DNA from: a bacterium
GTDB taxonomy: Bacteria; Desulfobacterota; JAPLJL01
Direction of reading: 5' to 3'
DNA length: 64,000 nucleotides
Assembly (NCBI GenBank): GCA_028713675.1
Contig: JAQTNV010000010.1
Location: 12,369-76,368 of the forward strand
Within the stretch, counting starts at the first letter, position 1, and the number at the start of each line of letters is the position of its first letter. Under the pieces are notes generated by a model. The model was given only the letters and a program-made list of their open reading frames with translations. It did not search any database and had not been told where the DNA came from. Below, one piece after another: positions 1,345 through 52,372 of the stretch. The position numbers and the translations under genes are program-made.

Positions 1345-1613
1345 CTGCTTCCTCCTTCTGATAAAGCCTTGATATAAATGTTTGGAGTTGGGTGATAGGT
1401 GTTGGGTGCTGGGTAATAAAACTAAAATGCCACCCGAACTTATACCCCGAACTCTAAAAATTTCCTTCTCAGTTCCCTGCTCCGGGCCCTTTGCCTTCGG
1501 CTCCGACTGGGCAGGACGCCTGGATTCCAACCACCCAGCTACCCAACCACCGCGCAGCCAGGCTGCGGCTATCGTTTTGCCCTATGCCCTCTGCCCTATG
1601 CTCTATACTCTTT

Positions 1614-8379: not shown

Positions 8380-8465
8380 GTGATTAATAGAATTATCCTT
8401 CGCTTTTCGTTAGCCCTTTTCCTTTTTTACCCTATCTCCCATCTCCAATCTTCTATCTCCCGGGA

Positions 8466-13894: not shown

Positions 13895-14080
13895 AAGGTG
13901 ATAGGTGTTGGGTCATGGGTCATAGGTAAAATCAAAACCTAAAACCCAACACCCAAAACCTAATACCTAAAAATAAAAAACCCGAGGTTCCCCGGGTTTT
14001 AAGCTTCTTAACTTTTGGTTTTTCGCCTCTTGCTTCTTGCCTTTTGCCTATAACCTATGACCTATCACCTATGACCTATG
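13895..14080. repeat. Inverted pair of TAGGT-unit heptamer repeats (gtgataggtgttgggtcatgggtcataggt ... acctatgacctatcacctatgacctatgacc) flanking a terminator
   Basis: A related motif (gggtgataggtgttgggtgctgggt) occurs at 1392-1418. Confidence 0.6.
13971..14003. terminator. Bidirectional intrinsic terminator between the convergent 12699..13886 gene and mutS2
   Basis: Hairpin aaaaaacccgaggttccccgggtttt, with an A-run and a T-run on either side. Confidence 0.6.
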
Positions 14081-14082
14081 AC

Positions 14083-24227: not shown

Positions 24228-24309
24228 TCCCAGTCGGTGTCAGTGTCGGTGACGGGGATAAGAGTATAGGGCATAGGGCAAAGATCAAAAAGCAAAGAAT
24301 ATAAATGAT

Positions 24310-24631: not shown

Positions 24632-24697
24632 GCTTTTAACCTTGAACCGTGAACACTGAACCTCTTAACCTCTGATTTCCACCTTTCTCGCTACTAT

Positions 24698-28265: not shown

Positions 28266-29024
28266 TTGATCCAAGATTATCTCACCCTGATTTCCCTGAC
28301 TATCATCTCTGCGAATCCCGGGATTTCCCAGTCCGGCGGCGTCGGCGAGCTGGTGGCCCGGGCCGGGCCGGTGGTGAAATTTGTTCTCCTCCTCCTCTTT
28401 CTACTCTCGGTGGCCACCTGGGCGATCATCTTTTTCAAATACCTGCAGCTCCGGCTGGCGCGCACCCGCTCCCAGGCCTTCCTGAACATTTTCTGGGAAA
28501 AGAAGCGGCTGGAAGTGATCATGGAGGAGACCCAGAAACTTTCCGGCTGCCCCCTGCGCGCCCTCTTCCAATCCGGTTTCTCGGAGCTGACCAAGGTCCA
28601 GAAAATCAAGAGCCGCCACCCCGAGGCCGAGTCCGAAACCGGTTTGACTCCCCCGGAAGGGGGGGGGATCGAAAATGTCGAGCGGTCCCTGCGCCGGGCT
28701 TTTACCTCGGAAACCTCCCGGCTGGAATCCTACCTGACCTTTCTGGCCACCACCGCTTCCGCCGCCCCCTTCATCGGGCTTTTCGGAACCGTCTGGGGCA
28801 TTATGGACACTTTCCAGGGAATCGGCCGATCCGGGTCAGCCTCCCTGGCCGTAGTCGCCCCCGGAATTTCCGAGGCCCTGATCGCCACCGCCTTCGGCCT
28901 CGCCGCCGCGATCCCGGCGGTCCTGGCCTACAATTATTTTGTCAACATGGTGCGCAACCTCTCGAACCAGATGGAAGGGTTTACCCAGGACTTCCTGAAT
29001 ATCTGCCAGAGGCACTTCATATAA
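28266..29024 (+). CDS. tolQ: TolQ (MotA/TolQ/ExbB proton-channel family)
   Basis: Three TM segments, with a C-terminal ALIATAFGLAAAIPAVLAYNYF motif. First gene of a tolQRAB-pal-cpoB series. Confidence 0.85.
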   Translation: MIQDYLTLISLTIISANPGISQSGGVGELVARAGPVVKFVLLLLFLLSVATWAIIFFKYLQLRLARTRSQAFLNIFWEKKRLEVIMEETQKLSGCPLRALFQSGFSELTKVQKIKSRHPEAESETGLTPPEGGGIENVERSLRRAFTSETSRLESYLTFLATTASAAPFIGLFGTVWGIMDTFQGIGRSGSASLAVVAPGISEALIATAFGLAAAIPAVLAYNYFVNMVRNLSNQMEGFTQDFLNICQRHFI

Positions 29025-29058
29025 AGTTTCGAGTTTCTAGTTTAGGGTTTCGGGTTTG
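29025..29058 (+). repeat. Stop-codon-adjacent GTTTCGA-heptamer element (sense orientation, 3' of tolQ)
   Basis: The sequence agtttcgagtttctagtttagggtttcgggtttg starts the nucleotide after the tolQ TAA. Confidence 0.65.
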
Positions 29059-29111
29059 TTAATTGAGATTTGTTTGATAATTGGAGCTTGACAATTGGTG
29101 ATTGATTAAAA

Positions 29112-29519
29112 ATGAAGATTTCCGGAAAAGAATATAAAAGCCTGGCCGAGATCAATGTCACCCCCATGGTGGACGTAATGCTGGTCCTCCTGATCATTTT
29201 CATCGTCGCCGCCCCGCTCCTGGAACAGGGGATGGGGGTCTCCCTGCCCCAGGCCGAGGCCCCGGCGGTGGAAATCAAAAACGAGGACCTGATCATCAGC
29301 ATCGGTAAGAACCGGGTGGTCATGATCGGAAACGCGGCGGTACCCCTCGCGGAACTGGGAAAAAAACTCAAGCTGATCGGGGAGCAGACCGGCAAGAAAC
29401 AGATCTTCCTGCGCGCCGACCGGGACGTTCCTTACGGCCTGGTCGTTAAGGTCATGTCCGATATCAAGGGAGCCGGTTTTCCCGACCTGGGGATCGTGAC
29501 CGAACCGCCGGAGAAATAA
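29112..29519 (+). CDS. tolR: TolR (ExbD/TolR family)
   Basis: Motif NVTPMVDVMLVLLIIFIV, with the typical size and position for TolR. Confidence 0.85.
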   Translation: MKISGKEYKSLAEINVTPMVDVMLVLLIIFIVAAPLLEQGMGVSLPQAEAPAVEIKNEDLIISIGKNRVVMIGNAAVPLAELGKKLKLIGEQTGKKQIFLRADRDVPYGLVVKVMSDIKGAGFPDLGIVTEPPEK

Positions 29520-29689
29520 AACATCAAACTGAAGTTGGTAGGTTCACCGTTCCCATTCGCAGGGCTCAGGGCAAGCAAGGTTCAAAGGTTGAATACGGAA
29601 AAATCCAAAGGCAAAGTCCGGAAACACCTTAACCTTGAACTCTGGACTTTGAACCCTGAACCTGGATACCTACAAAGTAGAAGTAAGAA

Positions 29690-30502
29690 ATGACGTATTT
29701 ACAAGCGGAAGCCTTTTCCCTGAAAAAAGCCCTGACCATTTCCCTCCTGATTCATTTCCTGGTCATTTTATACATCGTGTTCGAGCCCCGGCTTTTTCCT
29801 TCCCCCGCCATCCCCCTGATCCCGGTCTACCGGGTCAACCTGGTTTCCCTCCCGGCCCCTCCCGCGCCCGAGGTGGTCACGCCGTCGCCGACGGTTGAGG
29901 CTCCCGCGCCTGTTCCCCCGGCCCCGCCCGTCCAGGCGGCACCCCCGGTCAAGGCCGCCCCGCCCGTCCAGGCCGCACCCCCGGTCAAGGCCAGTCCCAA
30001 ACTTCATTCCCAGGCCGTGAAAAAATCCCCGGCCTCAACCCGGCCGGCGAAAAAAACCGCGGCCGCTAAAACCGCGGCCGCCAAAGCCAAAGATTCCTTC
30101 GCAAAATCCCTGGACCACAGCCGGGAGCTGGGCCAGGCGATCGCCTCGATCAAGAAAAACCTGATCGAAAAGATCGAGTCCCAGACGGAATCGGACCTGG
30201 TGGTTCTGAATCCCAGCGCCGGATCGGAAAATTCCGACCCGGAGTTTCAGCGCTATCTCGAGGGGGTCTCCCGGAAAATCAAATCCGCCTGGGCCTATCC
30301 AGCGGCCAAGCCCCGGCAGCAGCTGATCGTGAGCATCAAGATCCGCGCGGATGGTCAGGTCACGGACGCCAAGATTGAAAAAAGCTCCCTGGACCAGGCC
30401 TACGACGCCTCGGCCCTCCGGGCCCTGCAGAAGGCCAATCCGCTGCCGCCCCTGCCCTCGCTTCGCTATGGACGAATCCTGGAAATCGGGTTACGTTTTT
30501 GA
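29690..30502 (+). CDS. tolA: TolA (membrane anchor, Pro/Ala-rich repeat linker, TonB/TolA C-terminal domain)
   Basis: N-terminal TM helix. Tandem PVQAAPPVKAAPPVQAAPPVKA repeats. C-terminal domain ending ...ALRALQKANPLPPLP. Confidence 0.75.
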   Translation: MTYLQAEAFSLKKALTISLLIHFLVILYIVFEPRLFPSPAIPLIPVYRVNLVSLPAPPAPEVVTPSPTVEAPAPVPPAPPVQAAPPVKAAPPVQAAPPVKASPKLHSQAVKKSPASTRPAKKTAAAKTAAAKAKDSFAKSLDHSRELGQAIASIKKNLIEKIESQTESDLVVLNPSAGSENSDPEFQRYLEGVSRKIKSAWAYPAAKPRQQLIVSIKIRADGQVTDAKIEKSSLDQAYDASALRALQKANPLPPLPSLRYGRILEIGLRF

Positions 30503-30757
30503 AAGAAGGTGTTACATGCAGCAATTTAAGCCTTCGATATTACAGGAAAAAATGAAAAGCTCTAACATCATCAAACCCTTTGGAGTACATTAGCTTGCTG
30601 ATGCGATGCGTCCCGCCAGTGGCGGGAGGCACTCTAAAAATACTATTATGGATTGCAATAGTTTTCTGATACTCTGCAAAAGCAAGCTTTTGCGCTCCAT
30701 AAAGATATATCTGATAAGAATATTTGTAACACCCTCTAAAAACCAAAGGAGGAGATA

Positions 30758-32107
30758 ATGGAAAACCGATCAAATTCTCTCCCGACGAACCCCAAACGGA
30801 ATCTCCGGAAACTTCCCGGGTTATTCCTTTTGGCTGCTCTGTTTATCCTCGGGCCACTGATTCTGGCCTCCGTGGCGGAAAAGGTCTACATCGATATCGG
30901 AAGCCCGGGAGCCAAAAAGTTCCCGATCGCCATTCCCGCCCCGGCTCCGACCGCCGGCGCCCCCGCGGCCCTGGCGGGGAAGATCGCCTCGACCCTGAAA
31001 TTCGATCTCGAGCTTTCCGGCCTCTTCAAGATTCTTCCTCCCGAGTCCTACCTGAAACCGGGGCTCCCCTCGGGGGCCGAGGATTTCGCCTCCTGGCGCA
31101 CAATCGGGGCGGAGGGCCTGGTCCGGGTTAAATATGCCCAGAAGGACCAGAAGCTCTCCATTACCGCCGAGATCTACGATCCGGTCCAGGGCATTTCCCT
31201 CTCCGGAAAGGTTTTTACCGGCAGCCCCGAGAGCTGCGCGGCCCTCACCCACCAGCTCGCCAACGAGGTGGTGCGGGCCTTTACCGGCACCCCCGGCCTC
31301 TTCGGCAGCCGGATCGCCTATGAATCCAACCGGAGCGGGCGCAAGGAAATCTTCATTTCCGATCTCGATCAGACCCACGAGCTGCAGATCACCAGCAATC
31401 GCCGGCTGAATTTGAGCCCGGCCTGGTCCCCGGACGGCTCGCAGATCCTTTACACCTCCTATCTCAAACGCAACCCCGACCTGTACCGCTACGACCTCCG
31501 GTCCGGCAAATCGGAAAGCGTCGCCCACTTCCCGGGCCTGAACCTGGGGCCGGTCTTCTCCCCGTCGGGAAAAGAGCTCGCCCTGACCCTTTCCCGGGAT
31601 AACGACGCGGAAATCTACGTGCAGAACCTGGCCAGCAAGGAAATGACCCGCCTGACCAACAACCAGGTGATCGACGTGCAGCCCTCCTATTCCCCCGACG
31701 GGAAGAAAATCGCCTTTACCAGCTCCCGGGCGGGCTCGCCCCAGATTTACGTCATGGATTCCGACGGGAAAAACGCCGTCCGGCTGACCTTCCAGGGCTC
31801 CTACAACTGCTCCCCGGCCTGGTCCCCGCGGGGCGACCGGATCGCCTACACCCGCCAGGAAAATAACCGCTTCTCGCTCTTTACCATCAAACCCGACGGC
31901 ACGGAGGACACCCTCCTGGTGGGGGACGCGGGCAGCAACGAAGACCCGGCTTGGTCCCCGGATGGGCGCCTGATCGCTTTCTCCACGAACCGCACCGGCG
32001 ACTATGACATCTGGGTGGTGAATTTCGACGGCAGCACCCCCCGGGCGCTGATCACCCGGAAGGGATCGAACGAAACCGCGCCGGCGTGGTCCGCGGTCGC
32101 TCCCTGA
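30758..32107 (+). CDS. tolB: TolB periplasmic beta-propeller protein
   Basis: Signal peptide. Repeated PAWSPDG, PSYSPDGKKIAFTSSR and PAWSPRGDRIAYT blades. Confidence 0.9.
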   Translation: MENRSNSLPTNPKRNLRKLPGLFLLAALFILGPLILASVAEKVYIDIGSPGAKKFPIAIPAPAPTAGAPAALAGKIASTLKFDLELSGLFKILPPESYLKPGLPSGAEDFASWRTIGAEGLVRVKYAQKDQKLSITAEIYDPVQGISLSGKVFTGSPESCAALTHQLANEVVRAFTGTPGLFGSRIAYESNRSGRKEIFISDLDQTHELQITSNRRLNLSPAWSPDGSQILYTSYLKRNPDLYRYDLRSGKSESVAHFPGLNLGPVFSPSGKELALTLSRDNDAEIYVQNLASKEMTRLTNNQVIDVQPSYSPDGKKIAFTSSRAGSPQIYVMDSDGKNAVRLTFQGSYNCSPAWSPRGDRIAYTRQENNRFSLFTIKPDGTEDTLLVGDAGSNEDPAWSPDGRLIAFSTNRTGDYDIWVVNFDGSTPRALITRKGSNETAPAWSAVAP

Positions 32108-32206
32108 ACGGGTCCCGAAAATGATTGTCAATATATGTTAAGATGAAAAAGAGGAAGCATTATGACTGAAGAAAACCAGAAAGATAAAGTAAAAAAGGAG
32201 GGTGGG

Positions 32207-33109
32207 ATGAATTTGTTCCAAAAGAGAATGTTTGGATCTCTTTTAGTTACCCTGGGAGTCGCGGCGCTGGTAATCCTCTCCGCCTGCGCCAAGCCCCCGA
32301 TCAAGGAAATCGCCACCGCCGAAGCGGCCCTGGAAAAGGCGCGCACGGCCGAGGCCCCCACCTACGCCCCGGAAACTTTCAAGAGCGCCGAGGACATCCT
32401 CGCCCAGGCCAAGACCGAGATGCAGAAAAAGAAATACAAACCGGCCAAGAAAGACGCCATCAACGCCCGGCTCCTGGCCGAGCGGGCCCTGGATGAGGCC
32501 GTCAAGAACAAGGCCGCCCAGGAGGCCGTACAGCCCAAAGCCCCCGGTCTGACCGAGGAGGAAAAAGCCGCCGGCCCCACTGTCCAGCCGCAGGAAATCT
32601 CGGTGGCCGAGCTCCAGAAACAGCAGACCGGGACCGGCTCCCTGGATGAAGGAATGAAGATTTCGTCCCTGGAAGCTGTCCATTTCAATTTCGACGATTT
32701 CAGCCTCTCTGAAGAAGCCCGCCAGACCCTGGCCAAGAACGCGGAATGGTTGAAAAAATACAATGTCGTGATCCAGATCGAAGGCCACTGCGACGAGCGC
32801 GGCGCCAACGAATACAACCTCGCCCTGGGCGAGAAAAGGGCCAAGACCGCCCGCGATTACCTGGTGGCTCTCGGCATTGACGCTTCCCGGCTGACGATCA
32901 TCAGTTACGGGGAAGAAATCCCGGTCGACCCCGGCAGCAGCGAAGCCGCCTGGGCCAAGAACCGGCGGGCCGAATTCATTGTCACAAAAATGAACGACAA
33001 GCAGCCGGAGACCGGTGTCAAACAGCCGGAAACCGGCATCAAGCAGCCGGAGGCCGGGATTACACAGCCGGAAACCGGCATTAAGCAGCCGGAAACCGGC
33101 AGCAAGTAG
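32207..33109 (+). CDS. pal: Peptidoglycan-associated lipoprotein Pal (OmpA-like domain) with five C-terminal KQPETGI heptapeptide repeats
   Basis: Lipobox LVILSAC. OmpA-like core (NVVIQIEGHCDERGANEYNLALGEKRAKTARDYL). RBS aaggaggg before the ATG at 32207. Tandem 21-bp repeat at 32995-33100. Confidence 0.85.
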   Translation: MNLFQKRMFGSLLVTLGVAALVILSACAKPPIKEIATAEAALEKARTAEAPTYAPETFKSAEDILAQAKTEMQKKKYKPAKKDAINARLLAERALDEAVKNKAAQEAVQPKAPGLTEEEKAAGPTVQPQEISVAELQKQQTGTGSLDEGMKISSLEAVHFNFDDFSLSEEARQTLAKNAEWLKKYNVVIQIEGHCDERGANEYNLALGEKRAKTARDYLVALGIDASRLTIISYGEEIPVDPGSSEAAWAKNRRAEFIVTKMNDKQPETGVKQPETGIKQPEAGITQPETGIKQPETGSK

Positions 33110-33115
33110 AAAGAA

Positions 33116-33152
33116 ACCAGTTTCTAGTTTCGAGTTTCGGGTTTCGAGTTTG
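33116..33152 (+). repeat. Stop-codon-adjacent GTTTCGA-heptamer element (3' of pal)
   Basis: The sequence ccagtttctagtttcgagtttcgggtttcgagtttg begins 7 nt after the pal TAG. Confidence 0.65.
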
Positions 33153-33271
33153 AAATTCTCGGAATTTTTTACGGAATGTCATTTCTGCGAACATGTCCGA
33201 CGACCTGTCCTCCGAAGCCTTGGCGTAGGAGGGAGCCTTGGCGAAGTCGGAAGCAGGAATCCAGGGGTTTT

Positions 33272-34126
33272 ATGAAGATTTCTTTTCGCTTTCTTCTTTT
33301 CACTCTTTGCTCCCTGCTCCCTGCCCTTTGTCTATTCCCCGGCTGTCTGCTCCTGACCAGTAACGACGGCATCGTCATCTCCGCCCGGCTGGATACCCTC
33401 GAGTCCAAGGTCAACCGGCTGGACCAGGACCTGCCCCGGCTCAAGGCCCAGAGCGAAGCCAACCAGAAGGAGCTCGAGCGGCTCACCCGCCAGCAGGCCG
33501 ACCTGCTGAACCAGATCGAGCAGATCAAGCAGACCATCCTCTCCCTCGGGGGAAAATTCGAGGAAGGGGAATCCCTGTTTGCCCGGCTGAAAACCCTGGA
33601 AGGGGAAGTCCAGGAACAGGCCGCCCAGGTCAAGCTGCATGCCGACCGGGCCCGGGAGCAGAACGACCGCCTGGCCAAGTTGGAAGGGATCATTTCCCCG
33701 GGCGGGCAGGTAGACGCCCAGAAACTGACCCCGAAATGGGCCAACGAGGAAGCCGGCTACCGGGAAGCCTACTCGAATTATCAGGGGAAAAAATACGATC
33801 TGGCCCGGGCCAAGTTTGAAAAGCTCATCGAGCTTTACCCCGGAGGCCAGTTCTCCGAAAGCGCCCGTTATTGGATCGGGGAATGTTACTTCAACCTCAA
33901 GGATTACGAGCGGGCTCTACTGAGTTTCAACGAAGTGATCGAGAAGTATCCGAAAAGCGACAAGGTCCCCGGCGCTTATCTGAAACTGGGGCTTTCCTTC
34001 CTCGAGCTTGGCCAGCAGAAGGAAGCCCAGATGGCCTTCGAAACCCTGCTTTCCAAGTTTCCCAAATCCGACGCCGCCAAAACCGCCAAGGAAAAGCTGA
34101 AAAAAATGAGGAAGAAGGGAAAGTGA
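33272..34126 (+). CDS. cpoB: Tol-Pal system protein CpoB/YbgF (coiled coil plus TPR)
   Basis: Signal peptide MKISFRFLLFTLCSLLPALC, a long coiled-coil region, and a C-terminal TPR (YWIGECYFNLKDYERALLSFNEVIEKYPKSDKVPGAYLKLG). Confidence 0.8.
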   Translation: MKISFRFLLFTLCSLLPALCLFPGCLLLTSNDGIVISARLDTLESKVNRLDQDLPRLKAQSEANQKELERLTRQQADLLNQIEQIKQTILSLGGKFEEGESLFARLKTLEGEVQEQAAQVKLHADRAREQNDRLAKLEGIISPGGQVDAQKLTPKWANEEAGYREAYSNYQGKKYDLARAKFEKLIELYPGGQFSESARYWIGECYFNLKDYERALLSFNEVIEKYPKSDKVPGAYLKLGLSFLELGQQKEAQMAFETLLSKFPKSDAAKTAKEKLKKMRKKGK

Positions 34127-34138
34127 TCAACTGTTTAA

Positions 34139-34309
34139 GGTAGGTGGTAGGTAGCAGGTGGTAGGTGGTAGGTGGTAGGTGGTAGGTGGTAGGTGGTAGG
34201 TGATAGGTGGTAGGTAGTAGGTAGTAGGTAGTAGGTAGTAGGTAGTAGGTAGTAGGTAGTAGGTAGTAGGTAGTAGGTAGTAGGTAGTAGGTAGTAGGTA
34301 GTAGGTAGT
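34139..34309. repeat. Long tandem heptanucleotide array (GGTAGGT / AGTAGGT, about 24 units)
   Basis: About 170 bp of perfect 7-nt periodicity immediately after cpoB, bordering the AT-rich islet. Confidence 0.9.
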
Positions 34310-34356
34310 AGACCCCCGGAAACCGATTTAACTCTTTTTTAAAATTCCATTTAAAT

Positions 34357-34842
34357 TTAATGACCCAGTGAAAATCCTAATATTTTGCCATTAGTACGAT
34401 CTATAAATACAAAACCATTAAACGCACCTGGAATAGGAGGAAATACTTTTAATTGAAAATAAATTGCCCAATAATTCTTCCCTCCTAAATGCATTTCTTG
34501 AATATTTGGTGAAAGCCAAATCCTTGGATTTCTATATACTTCGTCGTTCCATCTAGTATTATTGTCATCTGCTTTTATTCCAACTGTTTCTTTACCCCAA
34601 GATGGATCGTTTGTCTTTTTTATCAAACCAGCTCTAGCAATTTTTATCGCTTCCGACAAAGTGATGTTCGTTGTTTTCCCGGAAGGATAAGAAAATTCTA
34701 TCGATTTTATAGGAGAAGGATTCTTCTCCGCCTTTGAAGCTTCAGGAGTATGACTGGGAGAGCAATTCAAACATACCAGGAAGGTACAAACAACCCATAG
34801 TGAACAAACAACTCGCATAGAGGTATTATAAATCATTTTCAA
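34357..34842 (-). CDS. Hypothetical small secreted protein encoded in an AT-rich islet
   Basis: The ORF lies entirely in a roughly 530-bp segment of markedly lower GC (visually about 35-40%) than its surroundings. N-terminal hydrophobic Cys-rich signal (VVCSLWVVCTFLVCLNCS). Confidence 0.5.
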   Translation of the reverse strand: MKMIYNTSMRVVCSLWVVCTFLVCLNCSPSHTPEASKAEKNPSPIKSIEFSYPSGKTTNITLSEAIKIARAGLIKKTNDPSWGKETVGIKADDNNTRWNDEVYRNPRIWLSPNIQEMHLGGKNYWAIYFQLKVFPPIPGAFNGFVFIDRTNGKILGFSLGH

Positions 34843-34920
34843 CTTGATAATTCCTCGCGGCTGCGGGGTTGCCTTATTCCGTCATTCCGGGCTTGACTAA
34901 GCCTGCCCCGGACCTGATCC

Positions 34921-34971
34921 GGGGGAATCCAGTATTTTTTCCGCCTGGATTCCTGCTTCCGCAGGAATGAC
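34921..34971. repeat. GAAA-loop hairpin repeat, extended form
   Basis: The sequence gggggaatccagtattttttccgcctggattcctgcttccgcaggaatgac flanks the AT-rich islet. Confidence 0.7.
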
Positions 34972-35043
34972 AACAGACAAAATAAAGGTTTAATAAATTA
35001 GATACCCCGCGGCTTTCCACGGGAAGATTAATTCGGATGTGGA

Positions 35044-36489
35044 CTATTTTCCCAGGCGGGATTTGAGGAGCTCGCCCACCCGCTTGGGGTTGGCCTTGCC
35101 TTTGCTTTTCTTCATTACCTGACCGGTTAGAAACTGAAGAAGTTTCTCCTCACCGGATTTGAAGCGTTCCACTTCCTTGGGGCTATCCTTGATTACTTCG
35201 TCAATGATTCCGATCAGGGCCGACTCGTCCGAAACCTGGGACAGGCCCTGCTCCTGAACGATTTTCTCCGGGTCCTGGCCGTTCTTATACGACTCCTCGA
35301 GCACCTTTTTTCCGACCAGCCCGGAAATTTTCCCCTCATCCACCATCTTGATGATCCGCGCCAGGTTTTGCGGGGTCATCTTGACCGGGCCTCCGCCCTC
35401 CGCCCAGTAAATTCTTAAAAATTCTCCGGTCACCCAGTTGCTCACCTTCTTGGGCTCCGGATGGATTTTGACGGTTTCGTCAAAAAAATCGGAGACGGGC
35501 TTGGCGGCCACCAGGACCTCGGCGTCATATCGGGTCAGGCCCAGGTCCCGGACGAAGCGGTCCGCTTTTTCCTGGGGAAGCTCAGGTATTTTCTTTTTCA
35601 GCTCTTCCACCCAGGAATTTTCCAGAACCAGGGGCAGAAGGTCGGGCTCGGGAAAATAGCGGTAGTCATGGGCCTCTTCCTTGCCCCGCATCGGCAGGGT
35701 GACCTCATTATCGGGATCCCAGAGCAGGGTTTCCTGAACCACCTTTTTCCCCTCCGAGACGAGCGCGATCTGCCTTTGGATCTCCTTGGCCAGGGCTTTC
35801 TCCACGTTTTTGAAGGAGTTCATGTTCTTGAGCTCGGTCTTGACCCCCAGGGCGGTTTCGCCGCGGCGGCGGACGGAAACGTTAGCGTCGCAGCGAAGGG
35901 ACCCCTCCTCCATTTTCCCGTCGCAAACCCCCAGGTAAACCAGGATCGCGGCCAGGCGGCGGAGATAATCCCCGGCCTCCTCCGGAGTCCGGAGATCCGG
36001 TTCCGAAACGATCTCCATCAGAGGCACCCCGGCACGGTTCAGGTCCACGAAGCTCGATCCGGAATCCGCGCCTTCCCCGTGCACGAGCTTCCCGGCATCC
36101 TCCTCCAGATGGACCCGGGTGATCCCGATCTTCCGGAGCCCGTTCCCGCCCGCGGGGATCTCGAGCGAGCCCCGGAGCGCCAGGGGTGACTCATACTGGG
36201 AGATCTGGTAGCCCTTGGGCAGGTCCGGGTAGAAATAATTCTTCCGGGCGAAGACCGAGCGGGGAGGGATTTCCTCGCAATGCAGGGCCAGGGAGGTCAT
36301 GATCGCGAATTCCACCACCTTCCGGTTGATTACCGGCAGGACCCCGGGCATCCCCAGGCAGACCGGGCAGGTATGGCTGTTCGGCTGGTCCCCGAACCGG
36401 GTCGAGCAGCCGCAGAAGATCTTGGACTGGGTCTGGAGCTGGGCGTGGACCTCGAGGCCGATTACTGATTCAAAAGCTTTATCATTCAT
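35044..36489 (-). CDS. gatB: Asp-tRNA(Asn)/Glu-tRNA(Gln) amidotransferase subunit B
   Basis: Motif [19 protein letters not shown]...[13 protein letters not shown]-terminal YqeY-like tail. Confidence 0.9.
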
Positions 36490-36645
36490 AGTTCAAAGTC
36501 CAAAGGTCAAAGGTCAAAGTTCGAAGGAAAGATATAAAACAGCATCAGCAAGCTGATGCGCTCCAAAAAAGAAAACCCTGAATTCCGGCTTCCTCCTGCG
36601 CCGAGGCTTCGGAGGACAAGTCCGCCGGAATGACGATATTTATTT

Positions 36646-36680
36646 TTTACTGCTTACTGCCTACTCCTTACTGTTTACTG
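36646..36680. repeat. Tandem heptamer array (TTACTGC / CTACTCC units)
   Basis: Sequence ttactgcttactgcctactccttactgtttactgg. Confidence 0.7.
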
Positions 36681-36716
36681 GGAGCGAAGCTCCCTGCTGC
36701 CTACTTCTTACTGACA

Positions 36717-36741
36717 GCGCAGCCTAAAGGCTGCGGCTACC
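36717..36741 (-). repeat. REP palindrome with compensatory stem changes
   Basis: The sequence gcgcagcctaaaggctgcggctacc has the same architecture and CTACC end as the other copies. The stem is GCAGCCT/AGGCTGC rather than CAGGCT/AGCCTG. Confidence 0.6.
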
Positions 36742-36763
36742 TTAGAATGACAAATAAATATAT

Positions 36764-36806
36764 TTCAATCGTCAATCGTAAATCGTCAATCGTCAATCGT
36801 CAATTT
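36764..36806. repeat. Tandem heptamer array (AATCGTC units); a second copy lies at 36891-36922
   Basis: The sequence caatcgtcaatcgtaaatcgtcaatcgtcaatcgtcaatt is repeated about 85 bp downstream. Confidence 0.7.
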
Positions 36807-36920
36807 GCGCCTTGCGCTCTGCTTTTCGCAAGGCTAAAGCCTTGCCCTACATTTGCCCTATGCCCTTTGCGATCACAAATCAGGTTTTCACTCGTCAATC
36901 GTAAATCGTCAATCGTCAAT

Positions 36921-37856
36921 TTATTTTATGACTCCTTTGAGGATGGGGGCGAGTGTCTTTTTCAGCCGAGCAGGGATGGCTTTCGGGTCGGTGACAATGG
37001 CGTCCTTCAAGGCCTGGCTGCAGACGCAATTCCTCGCTTCCGGCAAATGGGGGATCGCGCCCGCGATCATTTCCTTGGCCTTGCCGATGGTGGCCTTCAT
37101 TACCTTGATCACATCCTCGATCTCGACCTCGCCTTCCCGCTCGTTCCAGCAGTCGTAGTCGGTGACCATCGCCACCGTGGCGTAGCAGATCTCGGCCTCG
37201 CGGGCGAGGCGGGCTTCCGGGAGGTTGGTCATCCCGATCACCGAAACCCCCCACTGGCGGTAGATGTCGGACTCCGCCCGGGTGGAAAACTGCGGCCCCT
37301 CGATGCAGATGTAGGTCCCCTGCCGGTGCAGCCGGAAGCCCTTTTCCTCGCCGACCCGGGCCAGGATCCCGGCCATGACCGGGCAGACCGGGTGGGCCAG
37401 GGCCACGTGCGCGACGATCTCTCGGGAGAAAAAGGTGCGGGGCCGGGCGGCGGTCCGGTCGAAGAACTGGTCGGGCAGAACGATATCGCCGGGATGGATC
37501 TCCTCGCGCATGCTCCCCACCGCGCTGACCGAGAAGATGCGCTCGGTGCCGAGCAGCTTGAAGCCGAAGATGTTGGCGCGGAAATTGATATCCCCGGGCG
37601 GGATCCGGTGGCCGCGGCCGTGGCGGGCCAGGAAGGCCAGGCGCCGGCCGCCCATCCGGCCGATCACGAACGGGTCGGAGGGTTCCCCGAAGGGGGTCTT
37701 GACCCTGACCTCCCGGATGTCGGTAAGTCCGGGCATCTCGTAAAGCCCCACCCCCCCGATCACCCCGATGGTCCCGGCCTCAAAAATTTTATTGCTTTTT
37801 TTACCAACCGAAATGTGGGGTTTCTTTTTCTTGCGTTTCATTCGTTTCCCCTTCAT
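36921..37856 (-). CDS. mtnP: S-methyl-5'-thioadenosine phosphorylase (purine nucleoside phosphorylase family)
   Basis: TIGVIGGVGLYE near the N-terminus, plus PNP-family motifs. The basic N-terminal extension of the ORF (MKGKRMKRKKKK...) is probably not translated, so the start is uncertain. Confidence 0.8.
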   Translation of the reverse strand: MKGKRMKRKKKKPHISVGKKSNKIFEAGTIGVIGGVGLYEMPGLTDIREVRVKTPFGEPSDPFVIGRMGGRRLAFLARHGRGHRIPPGDINFRANIFGFKLLGTERIFSVSAVGSMREEIHPGDIVLPDQFFDRTAARPRTFFSREIVAHVALAHPVCPVMAGILARVGEEKGFRLHRQGTYICIEGPQFSTRAESDIYRQWGVSVIGMTNLPEARLAREAEICYATVAMVTDYDCWNEREGEVEIEDVIKVMKATIGKAKEMIAGAIPHLPEARNCVCSQALKDAIVTDPKAIPARLKKTLAPILKGVIK

Positions 37857-37909
37857 TTAATCGAGATTGCTTCGTCGCTTGCGCTTCTCGCAATGACAAT
37901 TCTTCCAGA

Positions 37910-37980
37910 CTGGATTCCCGCTTTCGCGGGAATGACGGAATTAGCATGGATACTCCCGCCTTGGGCGGTACGGGAATGAC
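37910..37980. repeat. GAAA-loop hairpin repeat (ctggattcccgctttcgcgggaatgacgg) followed by a second gggaatgac end
   Basis: Lies between mtnP and ndk. Generates the spurious peptide WIPAFAGMT at the C-terminus of shadow ORF 36630..37979. Confidence 0.65.
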
Positions 37981-37987
37981 TTTCGAG

Positions 37988-38024
37988 AAAACAACCCGAA
38001 ACCAGAAACCCGAAACTCGGAACT
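37988..38024 (-). repeat. Stop-codon-adjacent GTTTCGA-heptamer element (3' of ndk, sense on the minus strand)
   Basis: The reverse complement reads agttccgagtttcgggtttctggtttcgggttgttt. Lies 15 nt 3' of the ndk stop. Confidence 0.65.
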
Positions 38025-38038
38025 GATTTATGCTTGAA

Positions 38039-38467
38039 TTACCCGGCCTGGATCCCGATGATCTCCAGCCGGTTGAAGAAGTTGGGAATCTCGTAGTCCG
38101 CCGAGGCTTTCGAATCGGAGCCGTGGATGATGTTGTACCGGATGGAATCCGCGAATTCATTCCGGATGGTGCCCTTCTCGGCCTTCTTGGGATCGGTGGT
38201 GCCCATGATCTGCCGCACCCGGGTAATCGCCCTTTCCCCTTCCAGCACGCAGGCGATGATGGGGCCGGAGGTCATGAACTGGACCAGTTCCTCGAAAAAG
38301 GGCTGTTCCTTGTGAACCTGGTAAAAGCCCTCCGCCTGGGACCGGTTGATCCGGACCAGCTTGATGGCCCGGATATCCAGGCCGTTGCTCTCGAAACGCT
38401 TGAGGATCTCACCGACCAGATGCTTCTTGACTCCATCCGGCTTGATCAAAATCAGGGTCTGCTCCAT
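38039..38467 (-). CDS. ndk: Nucleoside diphosphate kinase
   Basis: Motifs ILIKPDGV and NIIHGSD (active-site His). Confidence 0.9.
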   Translation of the reverse strand: MEQTLILIKPDGVKKHLVGEILKRFESNGLDIRAIKLVRINRSQAEGFYQVHKEQPFFEELVQFMTSGPIIACVLEGERAITRVRQIMGTTDPKKAEKGTIRNEFADSIRYNIIHGSDSKASADYEIPNFFNRLEIIGIQAG

Positions 38468-38567
38468 TTTTCCTTTCCTTCTTGGATCTGCTGAAAAAAT
38501 CCGGTCTGAATTTAGACTTTATCGCGGGCGATTCCTTGGTTTCGGCGGGTTTTGGGGTATTTCCAAT

Positions 38568-39164
38568 CTATTTGATCCGGGAAAGCATTTTCTTCCCGTA
38601 TTTGTATCCCTGCTCAAAGGCCTTGAAGTTCAATTCCTCGGTCCCCTTGGGCACCAGGTCCTGGATTGCCTTCTTGGCCGACTCCGGCTTCAGGTATTCG
38701 GTCACGGCGGAGAAAAAACCCACCATCACGATATTGACCACCAGACGCTTGCCCAACTCCTCGGCCAGCCGGGTGGCCGGGATGCCCAGGGCCCGGTTAC
38801 CCCAGGAAGCGACTTCATCCTTGTTGACCCGGACAATATCCTCCTCGTAAAGGAGCAGGGCATGGGGCCCCAGGTAGCCGCCGTACTTGCGGTAGGCCTC
38901 GTCGGACATGCAGACCTGGATCCGGGGCTGGGCCACGTAGGGGTAGTCGATCCGGTTATCGGAGATGATCACCTGGACACTGCAGGAGCCGCCCCGGGCC
39001 TCCGGCCCGAAGCTCTGGGTCAGAACCGTCTGCTTCCCTTCGTAGAGCGCCGCGGCCCGGCCGATGATAAACCCGGACATAATCACGCCCTGGCCCCCGA
39101 ACCCGCTGATCCGGATCTCGATCTGCGGGTTTTCCAGCTTTACCTTTTTTAATAACTTGGGCAT
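38568..39164 (-). CDS. korC: 2-oxoacid:ferredoxin oxidoreductase, gamma subunit
   Basis: Gamma-subunit motif GFGGQGV, typical of POR/KOR. The kor gene symbol is inferred from the adjacent sucCD/sdh/fum/mdh genes. Confidence 0.75.
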   Translation of the reverse strand: MPKLLKKVKLENPQIEIRISGFGGQGVIMSGFIIGRAAALYEGKQTVLTQSFGPEARGGSCSVQVIISDNRIDYPYVAQPRIQVCMSDEAYRKYGGYLGPHALLLYEEDIVRVNKDEVASWGNRALGIPATRLAEELGKRLVVNIVMVGFFSAVTEYLKPESAKKAIQDLVPKGTEELNFKAFEQGYKYGKKMLSRIK

Positions 39165-39183
39165 TCCCTCTCCGGATGAATTC

Positions 39184-40083
39184 CTACTTTTCCCAGAACG
39201 AAGGCCGCTGGTAGCGGGCCCCCATCGCCTTCCCGAGATGCTCGTCCATGGCCTGGATATATCCGGGCCGTTCCCGGTCCACGAATTTCCCGACGATGAT
39301 TTCCTGGCGTTTCTGCTCGATCGCCACCGACCGGGTTTCGGCGCCGTTCTGGATCCGCGAGTTTTCCTTCAGGTAAACCATTTCCTGCAAGGCGTCCCCC
39401 AGCCGGTTCCGGCGCAGGTAAAGCTCCGGGCAGGGGCTGATCACCTCGATGAAGCTCAAACCGTCCTTGTTCATGGCTTCGACCATCGCCCGGGTCAGCT
39501 GGCGGACATGGTAAACGGTCCAGCGGGCCACGTAGTTGGCCCCGCAGACATCCATCAGGTAAGGCAGGTTCAACGGGTATTCGTAGTTGCCGTAGGGGGC
39601 AGTGGTCCCGAAAGCCTCGTGCGGGGTGGTCGGGCCGAACTGTCCGCCGGTCATCCCGTAATTCAGGTTATTGACGAGGATCACGGTGAGGTCCACATTC
39701 CTCCGGGCCGCGTGAATCAGGTGGTTGCCGCCGATCGAGGTCAGGTCCCCGTCGCCCGAGTAAACCACCACCTTGAGCTTGGGATTGGCGAGTTTGAGGC
39801 CGGTGGCGAAGGGAATGGCCCGGCCATGGGTGGTATGGAACGAATCCAGGCGGAGATACCCGGCGACCCGGCCGGTGCAGCCGATCCCGGAAACCACTGA
39901 GAGCAAATTCTGGTCGATGCCGCTCTCCAGCACCGCCCGGGCAAAAGCCCCCATCGAGATCCCGATCCCGCAGCCCGGGCACCACATGTGGGGCAGGCGC
40001 TCCATCCGGATCAGGCTCTCAATCGGGTTTTGCGGCCGCGGCTCGATACTGAGCGGCGTTTCCTTTTTCGTCTGCTTCTTCAC
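39184..40083 (-). CDS. korB: 2-oxoacid:ferredoxin oxidoreductase, beta subunit (TPP-binding)
   Basis: TPP motif YSGDGDLTSIGGNHLIHAARRN. Motif WCPGCGIG near the N-terminus. Confidence 0.8.
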   Translation of the reverse strand: MKKQTKKETPLSIEPRPQNPIESLIRMERLPHMWCPGCGIGISMGAFARAVLESGIDQNLLSVVSGIGCTGRVAGYLRLDSFHTTHGRAIPFATGLKLANPKLKVVVYSGDGDLTSIGGNHLIHAARRNVDLTVILVNNLNYGMTGGQFGPTTPHEAFGTTAPYGNYEYPLNLPYLMDVCGANYVARWTVYHVRQLTRAMVEAMNKDGLSFIEVISPCPELYLRRNRLGDALQEMVYLKENSRIQNGAETRSVAIEQKRQEIIVGKFVDRERPGYIQAMDEHLGKAMGARYQRPSFWEK

Positions 40084-40162
40084 TATTATTCTTTAGGTTT
40101 ATTTATTTTATTTTTTTCTCTTCGCTTTCAGCTCTATGCGCTTTGCTCTCTGCTCGATGCCA

Positions 40163-41362
40163 CTACAGCCTGACTATCTCCCGGATCGCCCGGAGAATGT
40201 CCTCCGGCTGGTGCACCGTGCCTCCGCCGTGGGGAACGAGGGTAACCGGCACCTTGCCGGCCACCAGCCGCTCCACTTCCAGGGAAATCTGGCCGTAATT
40301 CAGCTCGGGCACGACGAATCCTCCCGCCATCCCCGCCAGCTGGCGGATCCGCTTCTCGGGAAACGGCCAGACCACGATCGGGCGGAAACGGCCGACCTTG
40401 ATCCCCTGCTTGCGGGCCATTTCCACCGCCCGGCTCGCCACCCGCGAGGTGATCCCGTAGGAAAGCACGATCACCTCCGCGCCCTCGCAGTCCTCTTCCT
40501 CGAAGCGCACGATCTGTTCCGCGTTGGTCCGGATCTTTTCGACCAGGCGGTGGACCAGCTTGCCCTGGGCCTCGGCGTTCATGGTCGGGTAACCGCGCTC
40601 GTCGTGCGTCAGCCCGGTGATGTGGAACCTCCGGCCGGTCCCGGCCTTGACGAACCAGGGCACCAGGTCCTTGCCGGTCCGGTAGGGAAGGTATTCCTCG
40701 ATCGGCAGGGTGGTATAACGGCGGTTGAAAACCTTGATTTTTTCCGCCGGCGGGATCACCACCCGCTCGGCCATGTGCCCGACGCATTCGTCCATCATCA
40801 CGAAGGTCGGGACCCGGAACTCCTCGGAGAGGTTGAAGGCCTGGATGGTCAGGTCAAAACATTCCTGGGGCGAATTCGGCACCAGGGCGATGACTTCGTA
40901 ATCCCCGTGGGAGCCCCAGCGCACCTGCATCATGTCCGCCTGGCCGGGGAGCGTGGGGAGACCGGTGGAGGGCCCGGCCCGCTGGACATCGATGATCACG
41001 CAGGGGGTTTCCAGCATCGCGGCCAGCCCGATGTGTTCCATCATCAGGGTAAACCCGGGCCCCGAGCTGACGGTCATGGTCTTCAGCCCGGCCCAGGCCG
41101 CGCCCTGGATGGCGATCGAACTGGCGAGTTCATCCTCCATCTGGATGAAGACCCCGCCGACCGTGGGGATCCGGGAGGCAAAGCGCTCCACGATCTCGGT
41201 GGAGGGAGTGATCGGATAACCCGCCACGAACCGGCAGCCCGCGGCCAGGGCACCCTCGCAGGCGGACTGGTCGCCATTCATGAAATGGACGCCGGTCAGC
41301 ACCCCCTTGGGATCGGCGGTGGCGTGATTCAGATCCTTAGCTTTCGGATTCGTCTTTTTCAC
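40163..41362 (-). CDS. korA: 2-oxoacid:ferredoxin oxidoreductase, alpha subunit
   Basis: Motifs GYPITPSTEI and SSGPGFTLMMEHIGLAAMLETP. Confidence 0.8.
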   Translation of the reverse strand: MKKTNPKAKDLNHATADPKGVLTGVHFMNGDQSACEGALAAGCRFVAGYPITPSTEIVERFASRIPTVGGVFIQMEDELASSIAIQGAAWAGLKTMTVSSGPGFTLMMEHIGLAAMLETPCVIIDVQRAGPSTGLPTLPGQADMMQVRWGSHGDYEVIALVPNSPQECFDLTIQAFNLSEEFRVPTFVMMDECVGHMAERVVIPPAEKIKVFNRRYTTLPIEEYLPYRTGKDLVPWFVKAGTGRRFHITGLTHDERGYPTMNAEAQGKLVHRLVEKIRTNAEQIVRFEEEDCEGAEVIVLSYGITSRVASRAVEMARKQGIKVGRFRPIVVWPFPEKRIRQLAGMAGGFVVPELNYGQISLEVERLVAGKVPVTLVPHGGGTVHQPEDILRAIREIVRL

Positions 41363-41588
41363 TGATCAACTTCTCCGACCAGATGGCGAAATCAGGGCAG
41401 ACCATCCCGCACATGTTGCAGCCGCTGCACTTATCCGGGGTGACGATCTCGGGGAAGTGAAAACCTCCCCGGTTCATGGTCCCGGAGGCCCGGAGGGCTT
41501 TCAGCGGACAGAATTCGATGCAGAAACCGCAGCCCTTGCAGCGGTCCGCCACCGTATGTACTTTGCCTCTCGGTCCCTTGGCTGGCAT
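41337..41588 (-). CDS. korD: 2-oxoacid:ferredoxin oxidoreductase, delta subunit (2x[4Fe-4S] ferredoxin)
   Basis: Two CxxCxxCxxxCP motifs (CKGCGFCIEFCP and CSGCNMCGMVCP). Overlaps the korA start. Confidence 0.8.
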   Translation of the reverse strand: MPAKGPRGKVHTVADRCKGCGFCIEFCPLKALRASGTMNRGGFHFPEIVTPDKCSGCNMCGMVCPDFAIWSEKLISEKDESES

Positions 41589-41769
41589 ATTATTATTCTT
41601 CTAAAAATTCAATTTGAGATATTAAACATTTAGGCCGCCGATGTCCAGAGGCATTCCTTCGACCTCCGGGCTGAGATAAGCCATCCGTTATCCTATTGAA
41701 AAAGGGAGCCCACAGAGGGGTTCATCCTGAAAGGATTCACCCTGAAGGGCTCCCTTGAATTTATTCAAT

Positions 41770-41805
41770 CAAACTATAAACTCGAAACCAGAAACTCGAA
41801 ACTTT
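41770..41805 (-). repeat. Stop-codon-adjacent GTTTCGA-heptamer element (3' of sucD, sense on the minus strand)
   Basis: The reverse complement reads aaagtttcgagtttctggtttcgagtttatagtttg. Ends 1 nt from the sucD stop. Confidence 0.65.
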
Positions 41806-41806
41806 C

Positions 41807-42691: not shown

Positions 42692-42703
42692 GGTTTTTCT
42701 TCC

Positions 42704-43870: not shown

Positions 43871-43959
43871 GTTTTCCTCAAATTGGGTTGCACCGGCTGT
43901 CCGTTCGGATCCTGGTCCAAAAGTCTCCCAGGATTTGAAGGCCAGCCGGCGATTGCCAT

Positions 43960-44661: not shown

Positions 44662-44734
44662 ATTTCTCCCTGCTCTGTTTTCCCGCTCTTTATTCTCTAA
44701 CCACCAAGCTACCTAGCCACCTTGTTTTTCTTTT

Positions 44735-44766
44735 AACCGGTTACCGGTTACTTGCTACCGGCAACT
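44735..44766 (-). repeat. Intercistronic ACCGGTT-unit element (3' of the sdhA stop)
   Basis: The sequence aaccggttaccggttacttgctaccggcaac contains AACCGGTT palindromes. Confidence 0.6.
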
Positions 44767-44769
44767 TGT

Positions 44770-46482: not shown

Positions 46483-46598
46483 TCAACCCCCAAATTTCTA
46501 TTTTCGAATTTCGAAATCCTATACCCTACCCCCTCTCCCTTCCTTCCCCCTCGACAGGGGAGGGCTTGGGTGGGGGTGAATTCGTTTATTTGTTTTCC

Positions 46599-48040: not shown

Positions 48041-48892
48041 TTAAATGACCGCCTCTTTATGCCGGTGCGAATGGCAATTGATGTTGATCGCCACCGGGAG
48101 GCTCGCGATGTGGCAATTCGTCATTTCGATATGCACCGCCAGGGCGGTGGTCCGTCCTCCCAGCCCGGCCGGCCCGATCCCCAGGCGGTTCACCTTTTCC
48201 AGGATCTCCTGTTCCAGGTTGGCCAGCTCGAGACTCGGGTTGGGGTTGCCGAGCGGCCGCAGGAGCGACCGCTTGGCCAGGATGGCCGACTGTTCCAGGT
48301 TGCCGCCGATCCCGACCCCGACGACAATCGGGGGACATGGATTGGAGCCGGATTCCCGGACCCGGTCCACCACCAGTTTCTTCACGCCTTCCACCCCGGC
48401 CGCCGGGGGCAGGAGCTGCACCCGGCTCATGTTCTCGCTGCCTCCCCCCTTGGGGGCGCAGACGATATGGATCTTTTCTCCCGGAACGATCCGGACATGC
48501 AGGATGCAAGGGGTATTATCCCCGGTATTCTTCCGGGTGAAGCAATCGCAGACCGACTTGCGGAGAAAGCCCTCCTTGTAAGCCTGCCGCACGCCCTCGT
48601 TGACCGCCTCTTCCAAACTTCCCCCCACCAGGTGCACGTCCTGGCCCAGGTCGATGAAAACGACCGCGAGGCCGCAATCCTGGCATAGCGGGTAGACTCC
48701 CTCCCGGGCAATCTTGGCGTTCTCGATGATTTCATCCAGGATCGCCACCCCGATGGGGGACTCTTCCGCTTTCCGGGCCCGGTCCAGGGCCTCGATCACA
48801 TCCTCGCCCAGGTTGTAGCAGGCCGATTGGAAAAGCTCCCGGAGCTTCGCAGTTATTTCTTTTACTTGGATTTCTCTCATTTTGTTCGTCAC
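48041..48892 (-). CDS. fumA: Class I (Fe-S) fumarate hydratase, alpha subunit (N-terminal domain)
   Basis: Fe-S hydro-lyase alpha motifs (CQDCGLAVVF, ...CHSHRH). GTG start at 48892. Confidence 0.85.
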   Translation of the reverse strand: MTNKMREIQVKEITAKLRELFQSACYNLGEDVIEALDRARKAEESPIGVAILDEIIENAKIAREGVYPLCQDCGLAVVFIDLGQDVHLVGGSLEEAVNEGVRQAYKEGFLRKSVCDCFTRKNTGDNTPCILHVRIVPGEKIHIVCAPKGGGSENMSRVQLLPPAAGVEGVKKLVVDRVRESGSNPCPPIVVGVGIGGNLEQSAILAKRSLLRPLGNPNPSLELANLEQEILEKVNRLGIGPAGLGGRTTALAVHIEMTNCHIASLPVAININCHSHRHKEAVI

Positions 48893-48919
48893 CGGTTTCC
48901 GGTTACCGGCTACCGGTTA
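48893..48919 (-). repeat. Intercistronic ACCGGTT-unit element that fills the entire mdh-stop to fumA-start spacer
   Basis: Sequence cggtttccggttaccggctaccggtta. Confidence 0.6.
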
Positions 48920-52295: not shown

Positions 52296-52372
52296 TGAGA
52301 TTCAGGGTTTAAGGCTCAAGACTCAAAGTTCAAAGAGAGTCATTTTACCTTTGAGCTTTGACCTTTCACCTG
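52296..52372. repeat. CAAAGGTCAAAG / CTTTGACCTTTG imperfect inverted repeat; other copies lie at 9330-9395, 29570-29665 and 36485-36530
   Basis: AAGGTCA-type heptamer units in direct and inverted arrangement, lying in 5' regions of hypE, parA/9514, tolA and gatB. Confidence 0.55.

Follow-up and report, generated by a model that had tools for sequence, protein, structure and literature searches.

Heptameric GTTTCKR arrays past four bacterial stop codons are probable members of a broad class of intergenic tandem repeats whose polarity follows the nearest open reading frame

We analysed a 64 kb stretch of bacterial DNA from contig JAQTNV010000010.1 (the window; 58% G+C), in which short tandem arrays of a seven-nucleotide unit, GTTTCKR, lie immediately downstream of four genes identified by NCBIfam as TolQ, Pal, Ndk and SucD. 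The first array (29025..29057, + strand) consists of the units AGTTTCG, AGTTTCT, AGTTTAG, GGTTTCG and GGTTTGT and starts 0 nt past the tolQ TAA (29022-29024). The second (33119..33151, + strand) has five units and lies 9 nt past the pal TAG (33107-33109), the third (37993..38023, − strand) is 15 nt past the ndk TAA (38039-38041) and is followed by two hairpins that resemble repetitive extragenic palindromic (REP) sequences, and the fourth (41778..41803, − strand) is 3 nt past the sucD TAA (41807-41809). Directly downstream of copy 4, outside the array itself, is an intrinsic-terminator-like hairpin composed of GGGAGCCC...GGGCUCCC and a UUUUU tract (41699..41755, − strand). A search with GTTTCNNGTTTCNNGTTTC that tolerated up to one mismatch returned nine overlapping matches at these four sites and none in 100 dinucleotide shuffles, Tandem Repeats Finder reported a period of 7 at all four, and a fifth array of this family was not found in the 64 kb window. 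The original prediction had described the repeat as a strict GTTTCGR heptamer. The period of seven held, while the strict unit did not: position 6 is T in about one third of units, so that the unit reads GTTTC-K-R, and each array is closed by one or two degenerate units (GTTTG.. or GTTTA..). The 28-mer given in that prediction matched at 29025-29052 with one mismatch and at 33119-33146 with two, and the two minus-strand copies were more diverged than the plus-strand copies.

All four arrays read in the sense of the mRNA and occupy gaps between co-directional genes, as originally claimed. The preceding stop codon is 0–15 nt from each array and the next start codon 24–189 nt, and this nearness to the stop rather than to the following start departs from uniform placement within the gap (Fisher-combined p = 0.0037). 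Orientation considered by itself, with four of four copies in sense, gave p = 0.06. Transcription of copies 1 and 2 is likely, given their location within the tol-pal operon.

Many further period-7 arrays, overlooked in the original prediction, are distributed across the window. Tandem Repeats Finder returned about 30 rows with this period, and a strict detector identified 18 arrays at period 7 versus 0–6 at the other periods between 5 and 11, with none in Markov controls; 16 or 17 of the 18 are intergenic. Their units fall into approximately 12 families, including AGGGCAT, AGGTCAT, AGGTRGT, GGGAGAT, ATTGACG, AAAGGTC and TAACCGG. When the flanking genes were verified with Pfam and NCBIfam, 15 of the approximately 50 genes in the window were seen to have an array within 35 nt past their stop codon, and in all 15 cases the sense strand of the array contained more G than C (p = 6e-5). 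The GTTTCKR copies account for four of these 15.

The distribution of the unit beyond the window was determined in two scans for four GTTTCNN units, one of bacterial genomes at one genome per species (at least 119 loci) and one of IMG/VR viral contigs (at least 120 loci, L202-L321). The resulting census consists of loci outside the source genome that were selected by this pattern, and all of its counts refer to the matches listed. Acidobacteriota and Bacteroidota (mostly Flavobacterium) contributed 36 bacterial loci each, and further carriers were found in Desulfobacterota (including Desulfonema magnum), in the Planctomycetes-Verrucomicrobia-Chlamydiae (PVC) phyla, in Chloroflexota and in Cyanobacteria. 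From the size of the bacterial collection we estimate about four matches by chance, and for the viral collection likewise no more than a handful. The source genome is related to the Acidobacteriota: its closest relatives with a name belong to that phylum, at SucD identities of 66–70%. Some viral contigs carry three or four GTTTCNN arrays; phages may acquire the repeat-generating process of their hosts, or could carry arrays between hosts.

In this wider sample the consistent sense orientation on which the original prediction was built disappeared. Within co-directional gaps, GTTTC arrays were sense in 31 and antisense in 41 bacterial cases and sense in 24 and antisense in 47 viral cases, the latter favouring GAAAC on the mRNA, which gives 88 antisense against 55 sense for the two scans together. 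The GTTTC family as such is thus not bound to the sense orientation. The predicted non-random placement relative to genes did recur, in that 20 of 48 sense arrays in the bacterial matches were within 15 nt of a stop codon compared with 7 of 60 antisense arrays, and the antisense copies, with GAAAC on the mRNA, adjoin the following start codon instead.

We then considered 302 period-7 arrays of any unit sequence, drawn from the window and the bacterial loci of the census, with genes called by a self-training open reading frame (ORF) caller; given 8 kb blocks blind, this caller identified all 17 of the 17 confirmed genes of the window. Arrays abutting a stop codon had more G than C on the sense strand in 58 cases and fewer in 7, compared with 177:182 for control post-stop sequence, so that background strand skew could be rejected as the source of the bias. 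Among unpaired arrays flush to a single ORF, the G-rich strand read away from that ORF in 71 of 85 cases, comprising 47 of 55 at 3′ ends and 24 of 30 at 5′ ends. Because the ORF caller had mis-stranded genes in at least one high-GC relative (the tol genes of L123), the key polarity test was repeated with confident genes only, and the bias at 3′ ends persisted (29:4, p = 1e-5). The GTTTC family behaved likewise under this filter, with GTTTC in sense at 3′ ends in nine cases versus three and GAAAC in sense at 5′ ends in ten versus two. Since the same polarity is seen at 3′ and 5′ ends, it is anchored to the nearest ORF boundary and not to the mRNA or the direction of transcription. GTTTCKR is a unit with more G than C, and an ORF-anchored polarity consequently places it in sense next to a stop codon, whereas next to a start codon the mRNA carries the complement.

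Comparison with close relatives of the source organism indicated that individual arrays are readily gained, lost and resized. At tolQ|tolR, two relatives with 87% TolQ identity (L123 and L125) have the abutting sequence TAAATG, and the window carries an 87 nt lineage-specific insert exactly between these codons. This insert is made up of copy 1 and a remainder (29058..29111, + strand) extending to the tolR ATG (29112), which contains a 14 nt-period (2×7) repeat at 29074-29106 and supplies a Shine-Dalgarno (SD)-like GGTGAT about 9 nt before the ATG. Copy 1 is found at 0 nt from the tolQ stop probably because the abutting TAA and ATG left a single permissible insertion point. The pal array has three units in a 94% identical relative (L122) versus five in the window and is absent from the 90% identical L123 and L125, and no array follows sucD in relatives with 94% (L120) or 81% (L121) SucD identity, where the gap was unalignable. 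The tolR|tolA spacer measures 0 nt in L123, 208 nt in L126 and 170 nt in the window, with different heptamer families; that of L126 (452-659) is an inverted pair of TTATCGG-type units followed by AACCGCA/ACCGATA-type units. Different arrays have come to occupy this junction independently in sister lineages, and the arrays as a whole are young and labile and change by whole units. Downstream, the approximately 250 nt tolA|tolB gap (30503-30757, + strand) is shared with the 90% relative L123 (4733-5000), with which it could be aligned, and is missing from L126 and from L122, the latter a closer relative, where about 20 nt separate the two genes; this presence/absence polymorphism does not track TolB identity and suggests recombination or an insertion similar to a miniature inverted-repeat transposable element.

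We conclude that the GTTTCKR arrays probably belong to the class of intergenic heptameric simple sequence repeats (SSRs), akin to the short tandemly repeated repetitive (STRR) sequences of cyanobacteria, and have no RNA function specific to GTTTC. The appearance of sense copies placed after stop codons then results from the ORF-anchored geometry of the whole class combined with very short ancestral gaps. How the polarity itself comes about can be answered only tentatively. One possible account, which we rate as somewhat doubtful, invokes replication slippage, the prevailing hypothesis for the excess of heptamers in bacteria. Slippage would create the arrays and alter their length, and they would persist only at sites and in orientations that spare ORFs and translation signals; at tightly packed junctions the point directly past the stop would be the only permissible site. 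Upstream of starts, SD-like motifs were depleted about four-fold on the sense strand of arrays (0.70 versus 2.85 per 100 nt), and after stops they occurred at 4.1 versus 0.7 per 100 nt, so that these motifs follow the skew. Such a pattern would fit a filter that removes spurious ribosome-binding sites ahead of genes; the 3′ half of the rule is left unexplained by it. Two other general causes were rejected. A barrier formed by stop codons within the arrays is not general, as all frames are closed on 25 sense versus 22 antisense strands; in about one third of stop-abutting arrays, those with TGA or TAG in their unit, a repeat unit does supply the stop codon, and the units GTTTC[AG/AA] have their stops on the opposite strand, so that the barrier does not apply to them. 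Avoidance of Rho-dependent polarity was discarded as the bias is alike in co-directional (42:9) and convergent (18:4) gaps.

Several observations weigh against this combination of class membership and tolerated slippage. A pure tolerance filter predicts no G-rich orientation after stop codons, and the polarity there is left unexplained by stop-codon content and by avoidance of Rho polarity alike. The 5′-end half of the rule was weak when restricted to confident genes (13:8), and the mis-stranding of tol genes in L123 marks a limit of the census. The repeated occurrence of the GTTTC unit, four times in the window and again across many phyla and in phages, is more than slippage alone explains. 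Some arrays are conserved in site over 87–90% protein identity, one being an AAAGNTC array upstream of gatB that keeps its position in L123-L125 (GatB 87–89% identical). Finally, variation within arrays was mildly concentrated at fixed phases of the unit (0.62 versus 0.52 expected; 21 of 126 arrays individually significant), which hints at constraint on a core; as this phase-specific variation is weak, constraint on a core in each unit was rejected as an explanation.

That last observation bears on the reading in which the arrays act as RNA, which was the conclusion the original prediction had drawn from the sense placement. Here (GUUUCKR)4-5 would recruit a single-strand RNA-binding protein of the cold-shock-domain or S1 type, with a footprint of about 7 nt, keeping the untranslated junction unstructured and tuning how the downstream message is coupled, stabilised or antiterminated. 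The arrays are indeed unstructured: copies 1 and 2 folded no better than shuffles (z = +0.24 and −0.42), and where folding did reach significance, beside copies 3 and 4, it is due to downstream hairpins, with the terminator giving z = −2.9 at copy 4. Besides the four sense copies near stops in the window there are about 25 independent cases in at least 20 genomes, the mild phase-specific variation suggests a conserved 5 nt core, Bacillus subtilis CspB binds T-rich heptamers at one protein each (as reviewed in PMC4679880), and the heptamers of Xanthomonas are mostly transcribed (PMC4692102). Against such a role, the reverse orientation is as common or commoner among the listed matches from other genomes and phages, many unrelated units show the same polarity, close relatives lack or have resized the arrays, and the spacing from the stop varies over 0–15 nt with no preference for a stop codon (13:2 for array-flanked versus 29:8 for other genes, p = 0.70). 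The last two features also led us to reject a termination-context element. A role as transcription terminator was rejected after a scan gave 24 terminator-like sites versus 24.3 in shuffles, and Rfam gave no match at the gathering threshold anywhere in the window. An RNA element specific to GTTTC is thus unlikely, and the step from sense placement to RNA function was not supported; a weak RNA-level or translation-level selection filter on the arrays that are tolerated is possible.

A more far-reaching interpretation starts from the polarity of units unable to form G-quadruplexes, which spans six or more bacterial phyla as well as phage contigs. This polarity would then be no by-product of G-quadruplexes or of mere tolerance but the signature of a dedicated and widely shared process. 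The candidates would be a directional generation of repeats at ORF ends, or a conserved single-stranded nucleic acid-binding protein with a 7 nt footprint that would use the arrays as insulators or coupling elements at operon junctions. We regard this as a long shot.

Pairs of arrays are relevant to the next alternative, in which arrays are the arms of imperfect palindromes with the G-rich arm first, extending or forming terminator or stabiliser stems in gaps, and the GTTTC copies are 5′ arms whose partners have eroded. A palindrome of this kind would automatically produce ORF-anchored polarity on both strands. Same-family pairs were inverted in 37 cases and direct in 17, with the G-rich arm first in 27 against 5. 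An example is the convergent gap between genes for a TPR protein and MutS2. Here an AGGTSAT array 8 nt past the TPR gene stop (13895..13930, + strand) pairs, as the 5′ arm, with an inverted AGGTCAT array (14047..14090, − strand) in a long hairpin; the stem formed by the opposed arrays measures roughly 45 bp and encloses a bidirectional terminator (z = −6.96). Xanthomonas genomes contain 70–75 convergent inverted pairs each (PMC4692102), a terminator follows copy 4, and about one inverted unit is present past copies 2 and 3. Yet a complementary arm could not be recognised in the gap of any of the four GTTTC copies, copies 1 and 2 fold like shuffles, and most census arrays are unpaired. The opposed arms at tolR|tolA, a CCTGAAC array (29627..29662, + strand; sense strand C>G) located some 28 nt ahead of the tolA start codon and an AAGGTTC-type arm earlier in the 170 nt gap, also fold weakly (z = −1.1). 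An origin of the GTTTC copies as hairpin arms therefore seems doubtful, with little probability attached to it.

The arrays could also be cargo or remnants of a small non-autonomous mobile element, or products of an enzyme-driven process, that targets the point after a stop codon and spreads horizontally, possibly via phages. This reading draws on the clean insert between the tolQ TAA and the tolR ATG, on the GTTTC unit being found four times in 13 kb and again in many phyla and phage contigs, and on the common order of variant units among the AGGGCAT copies. We consider this improbable. The four copies have no flanking sequence in common, nothing else in the window matches the rest of the tolQ|tolR insert, terminal inverted repeats and clear target-site duplications are missing, and Pfam and NCBIfam revealed no transposase or reverse transcriptase encoded in the window, while orthologous copies differ in unit number as slippage predicts. 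Chance or an assembly artefact, for which only the small number of copies (four) could be cited, can be dismissed given the lack of matches in shuffles, the same pal array in the independent metagenome assembly L122 and hundreds of occurrences elsewhere.

The remaining heptamer arrays of the window illustrate the range of units and positions. One AGGGCAT-family array directly adjoins the stop codon of a gene for an acyl-CoA dehydrogenase (1573..1613, − strand; sense G>C), and another lies 33 nt past the stop of an aminotransferase gene (24261..24296, + strand; in sense, G>C). A GGGAGAT array (8430..8461, − strand) lies 30 nt past a ParA-like gene, in sense with 16 G and no C, and a GGTTCAN array (24633..24662, − strand; in sense, G>C) 35 nt past a ribonucleotide reductase gene. 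The longest array in the window, (AGGTRGT)x25 (34138..34316, + strand), is 11 nt past the ybgF stop and contains 83 G and one C; it is arranged as a block of about nine AGGTGGT units followed by about 14 AGGTAGT units, a structure that suggests recent slippage expansion, and its unit is one position off the SD core AGGAGGT. An ATTGACG array (36885..36920, − strand) is flush to the stop of a phosphorylase gene (36921-37856), with a second in the same orientation at 36762-36810 (− strand), and a TAACCGG array (48892..48919, − strand) fills the gap from the malate dehydrogenase stop to the fumarase start. The 5′-end case of the polarity is represented at sdhA, where a GAAATTC-type array (46493..46515, − strand), the complement of AATTTCG, precedes the SD sequence and ATG by some 15 nt.

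Heptamer repeats also reach into coding sequence. An AAAGGTC-family array (52343..52372, − strand) encodes approximately the last ten codons of HypD and ends at its stop, with the Pfam HypD domain ending at residue 356 of 372, and the TAG stop codon of mutS2 is the first unit of a GTCATAG-type array (14083-14090, − strand). The 3′ end of pal (32998-33106, + strand) holds five copies of a 21 nt (3×7) repeat that encodes KQPETGI heptapeptides and includes the heptamer CCGGAAA, which is also found in the array between the malate dehydrogenase and fumarase genes. The KQPETGI repeat is present as a single copy in L122, and the 90% identical relatives end Pal about 40 residues earlier, without the repeat tail; the Pal tail may have originated as a heptamer array that was taken up by the ORF and then multiplied in frame. 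A rare intragenic case is a period-7 run of CTCCCTG and CTCTCTG in the region of ybgF that encodes the signal peptide (33296-33330, + strand), the position of which is conserved in relatives (L123 7363-7404).

The window contains a second, non-heptamer family of dispersed repeats, consisting of the REP-like hairpins GTCATTCCCGCGAAAGCGGGAATCC and GTCATTCCCGTACCGCCCAAGGCGGGAG past the ndk array (37905-37990, − strand) and a related block of about 95 nt (…GGAATGTCATTTCTGCGAA…) in the pal|ybgF gap (33160-33260, + strand) that is inserted relative to L122. In addition, an 81 nt tandem repeat of 2.2 copies (96% identical) upstream of hypF (54294-54471, + strand) holds GGTAGCCACAGGCTTCAGCCTGCG…GCGCCTACC, and a similar palindromic motif occurs in the pal|ybgF gap of L123 and L125. 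The neighbourhood also includes a block of genes of the tricarboxylic acid (TCA) cycle type (38568-49858, − strand), encoding a four-subunit 2-oxoacid:ferredoxin oxidoreductase, sucCD, sdh/frd, fumarase and malate dehydrogenase, near the hydrogenase maturation genes hypD and hypF. This gene content suggests that the source lineage may have a reductive or reversible TCA cycle.

The arrays change the organisation of the genes between which they lie. Junctions of 0 nt that are translationally coupled, such as tolQ|tolR and tolR|tolA, are turned into spacers of 87–170 nt, and arrays occasionally become C-terminal coding sequence, as in the HypD tail, the MutS2 stop and possibly the KQPETGI repeats of Pal. 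Heptamer arrays are thus a fast source of both intergenic and C-terminal novelty.

Each REP sequence is one imperfect palindrome about 35 nt long; REP sequences are dispersed, intergenic, often located just past stop codons and often arranged as inverted pairs. The arrays described here resemble REP sequences and bacterial interspersed mosaic elements (BIMEs) in being dispersed and intergenic, in often following stops and in the inverted pairs that form hairpins. They differ in that the GTTTC arrays are tandem 7-mers that are neither palindromic nor folded; the four GTTTCKR arrays have no self-complementarity within them and so lack the stem-loop that characterises REP and BIME.

Closer parallels are found among heptameric repeats. 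Rehm et al. (2015, PLoS One; PMC4692102) cite a general excess of heptameric SSRs in bacteria, for which polymerase slippage was proposed (Mrazek et al. 2007), and heptamers in Calothrix (Mazel 1990). As summarised in the same paper, the STRR heptanucleotides of heterocystous cyanobacteria (Calothrix/Nostoc) comprise several families per genome with no known function. On that summary they share with the present arrays the presence of several heptamer families per genome, the tandem arrangement and the dispersed intergenic location, and differ in unit sequence and phylum. TAACTGA repeats, described in Beggiatoaceae, Cyanobacteria and Bacteroidetes (MacGregor 2015; PMC4679880), are intergenic sets of 2–6 (up to 43) copies with strain-specific gain and loss and 7 nt indels. 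Their orientation is tied to neighbouring start and stop codons, some sets overlap stops, and cold-shock proteins (CSP), S1 and CsrA are candidate binders (PMC4679880). The patchy spread across phyla and the variation in steps of 7 nt between strains or relatives are common to both systems; the unit here is GTTTCKR and the four copies lie past stops, unlike the Beggiatoa sets, which are mostly a few nucleotides upstream of starts in 'forward' orientation (PMC4679880).

The most complete precedent is provided by GGGAATC in Xanthomonas and GGGGA(T/C)T in Nostoc PCC 7120 (PMC4692102), which are strict 7 nt units, with about four preferred, dispersed and approximately 90% intergenic, and which vary in length and sequence between close relatives. 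The ORF to which these repeats lie closest is found 5′ of them, 'irrespective of the ORFs orientation', a placement that Rehm et al. attribute to the G-quadruplex. The 7 nt units, intergenic location, polarity, inverted pairs and variation between relatives are all reproduced in the window and in the cross-phylum data. Two differences stand out. GTTTCKR has no regular G3 tracts and cannot form a G-quadruplex, which requires at least four of them, and it is thus a member of a broader heptamer class and not of a G-quadruplex subclass; and the polarity here extends over about 12 unrelated units, a different phylum and phage contigs. Since the rule holds in non-quadruplex units, in many phyla and in phage DNA, the G-quadruplex explanation is weakened, which suggests that the placement rule belongs to heptamer arrays as such. 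The intergenic heptamer class has been known since 1990 and was characterised between 2007 and 2015, and ORF-anchored placement was already established in Xanthomonas and Nostoc; what is new is the GTTTCKR unit family and the extension of the placement rule to units that are unable to form G-quadruplexes.

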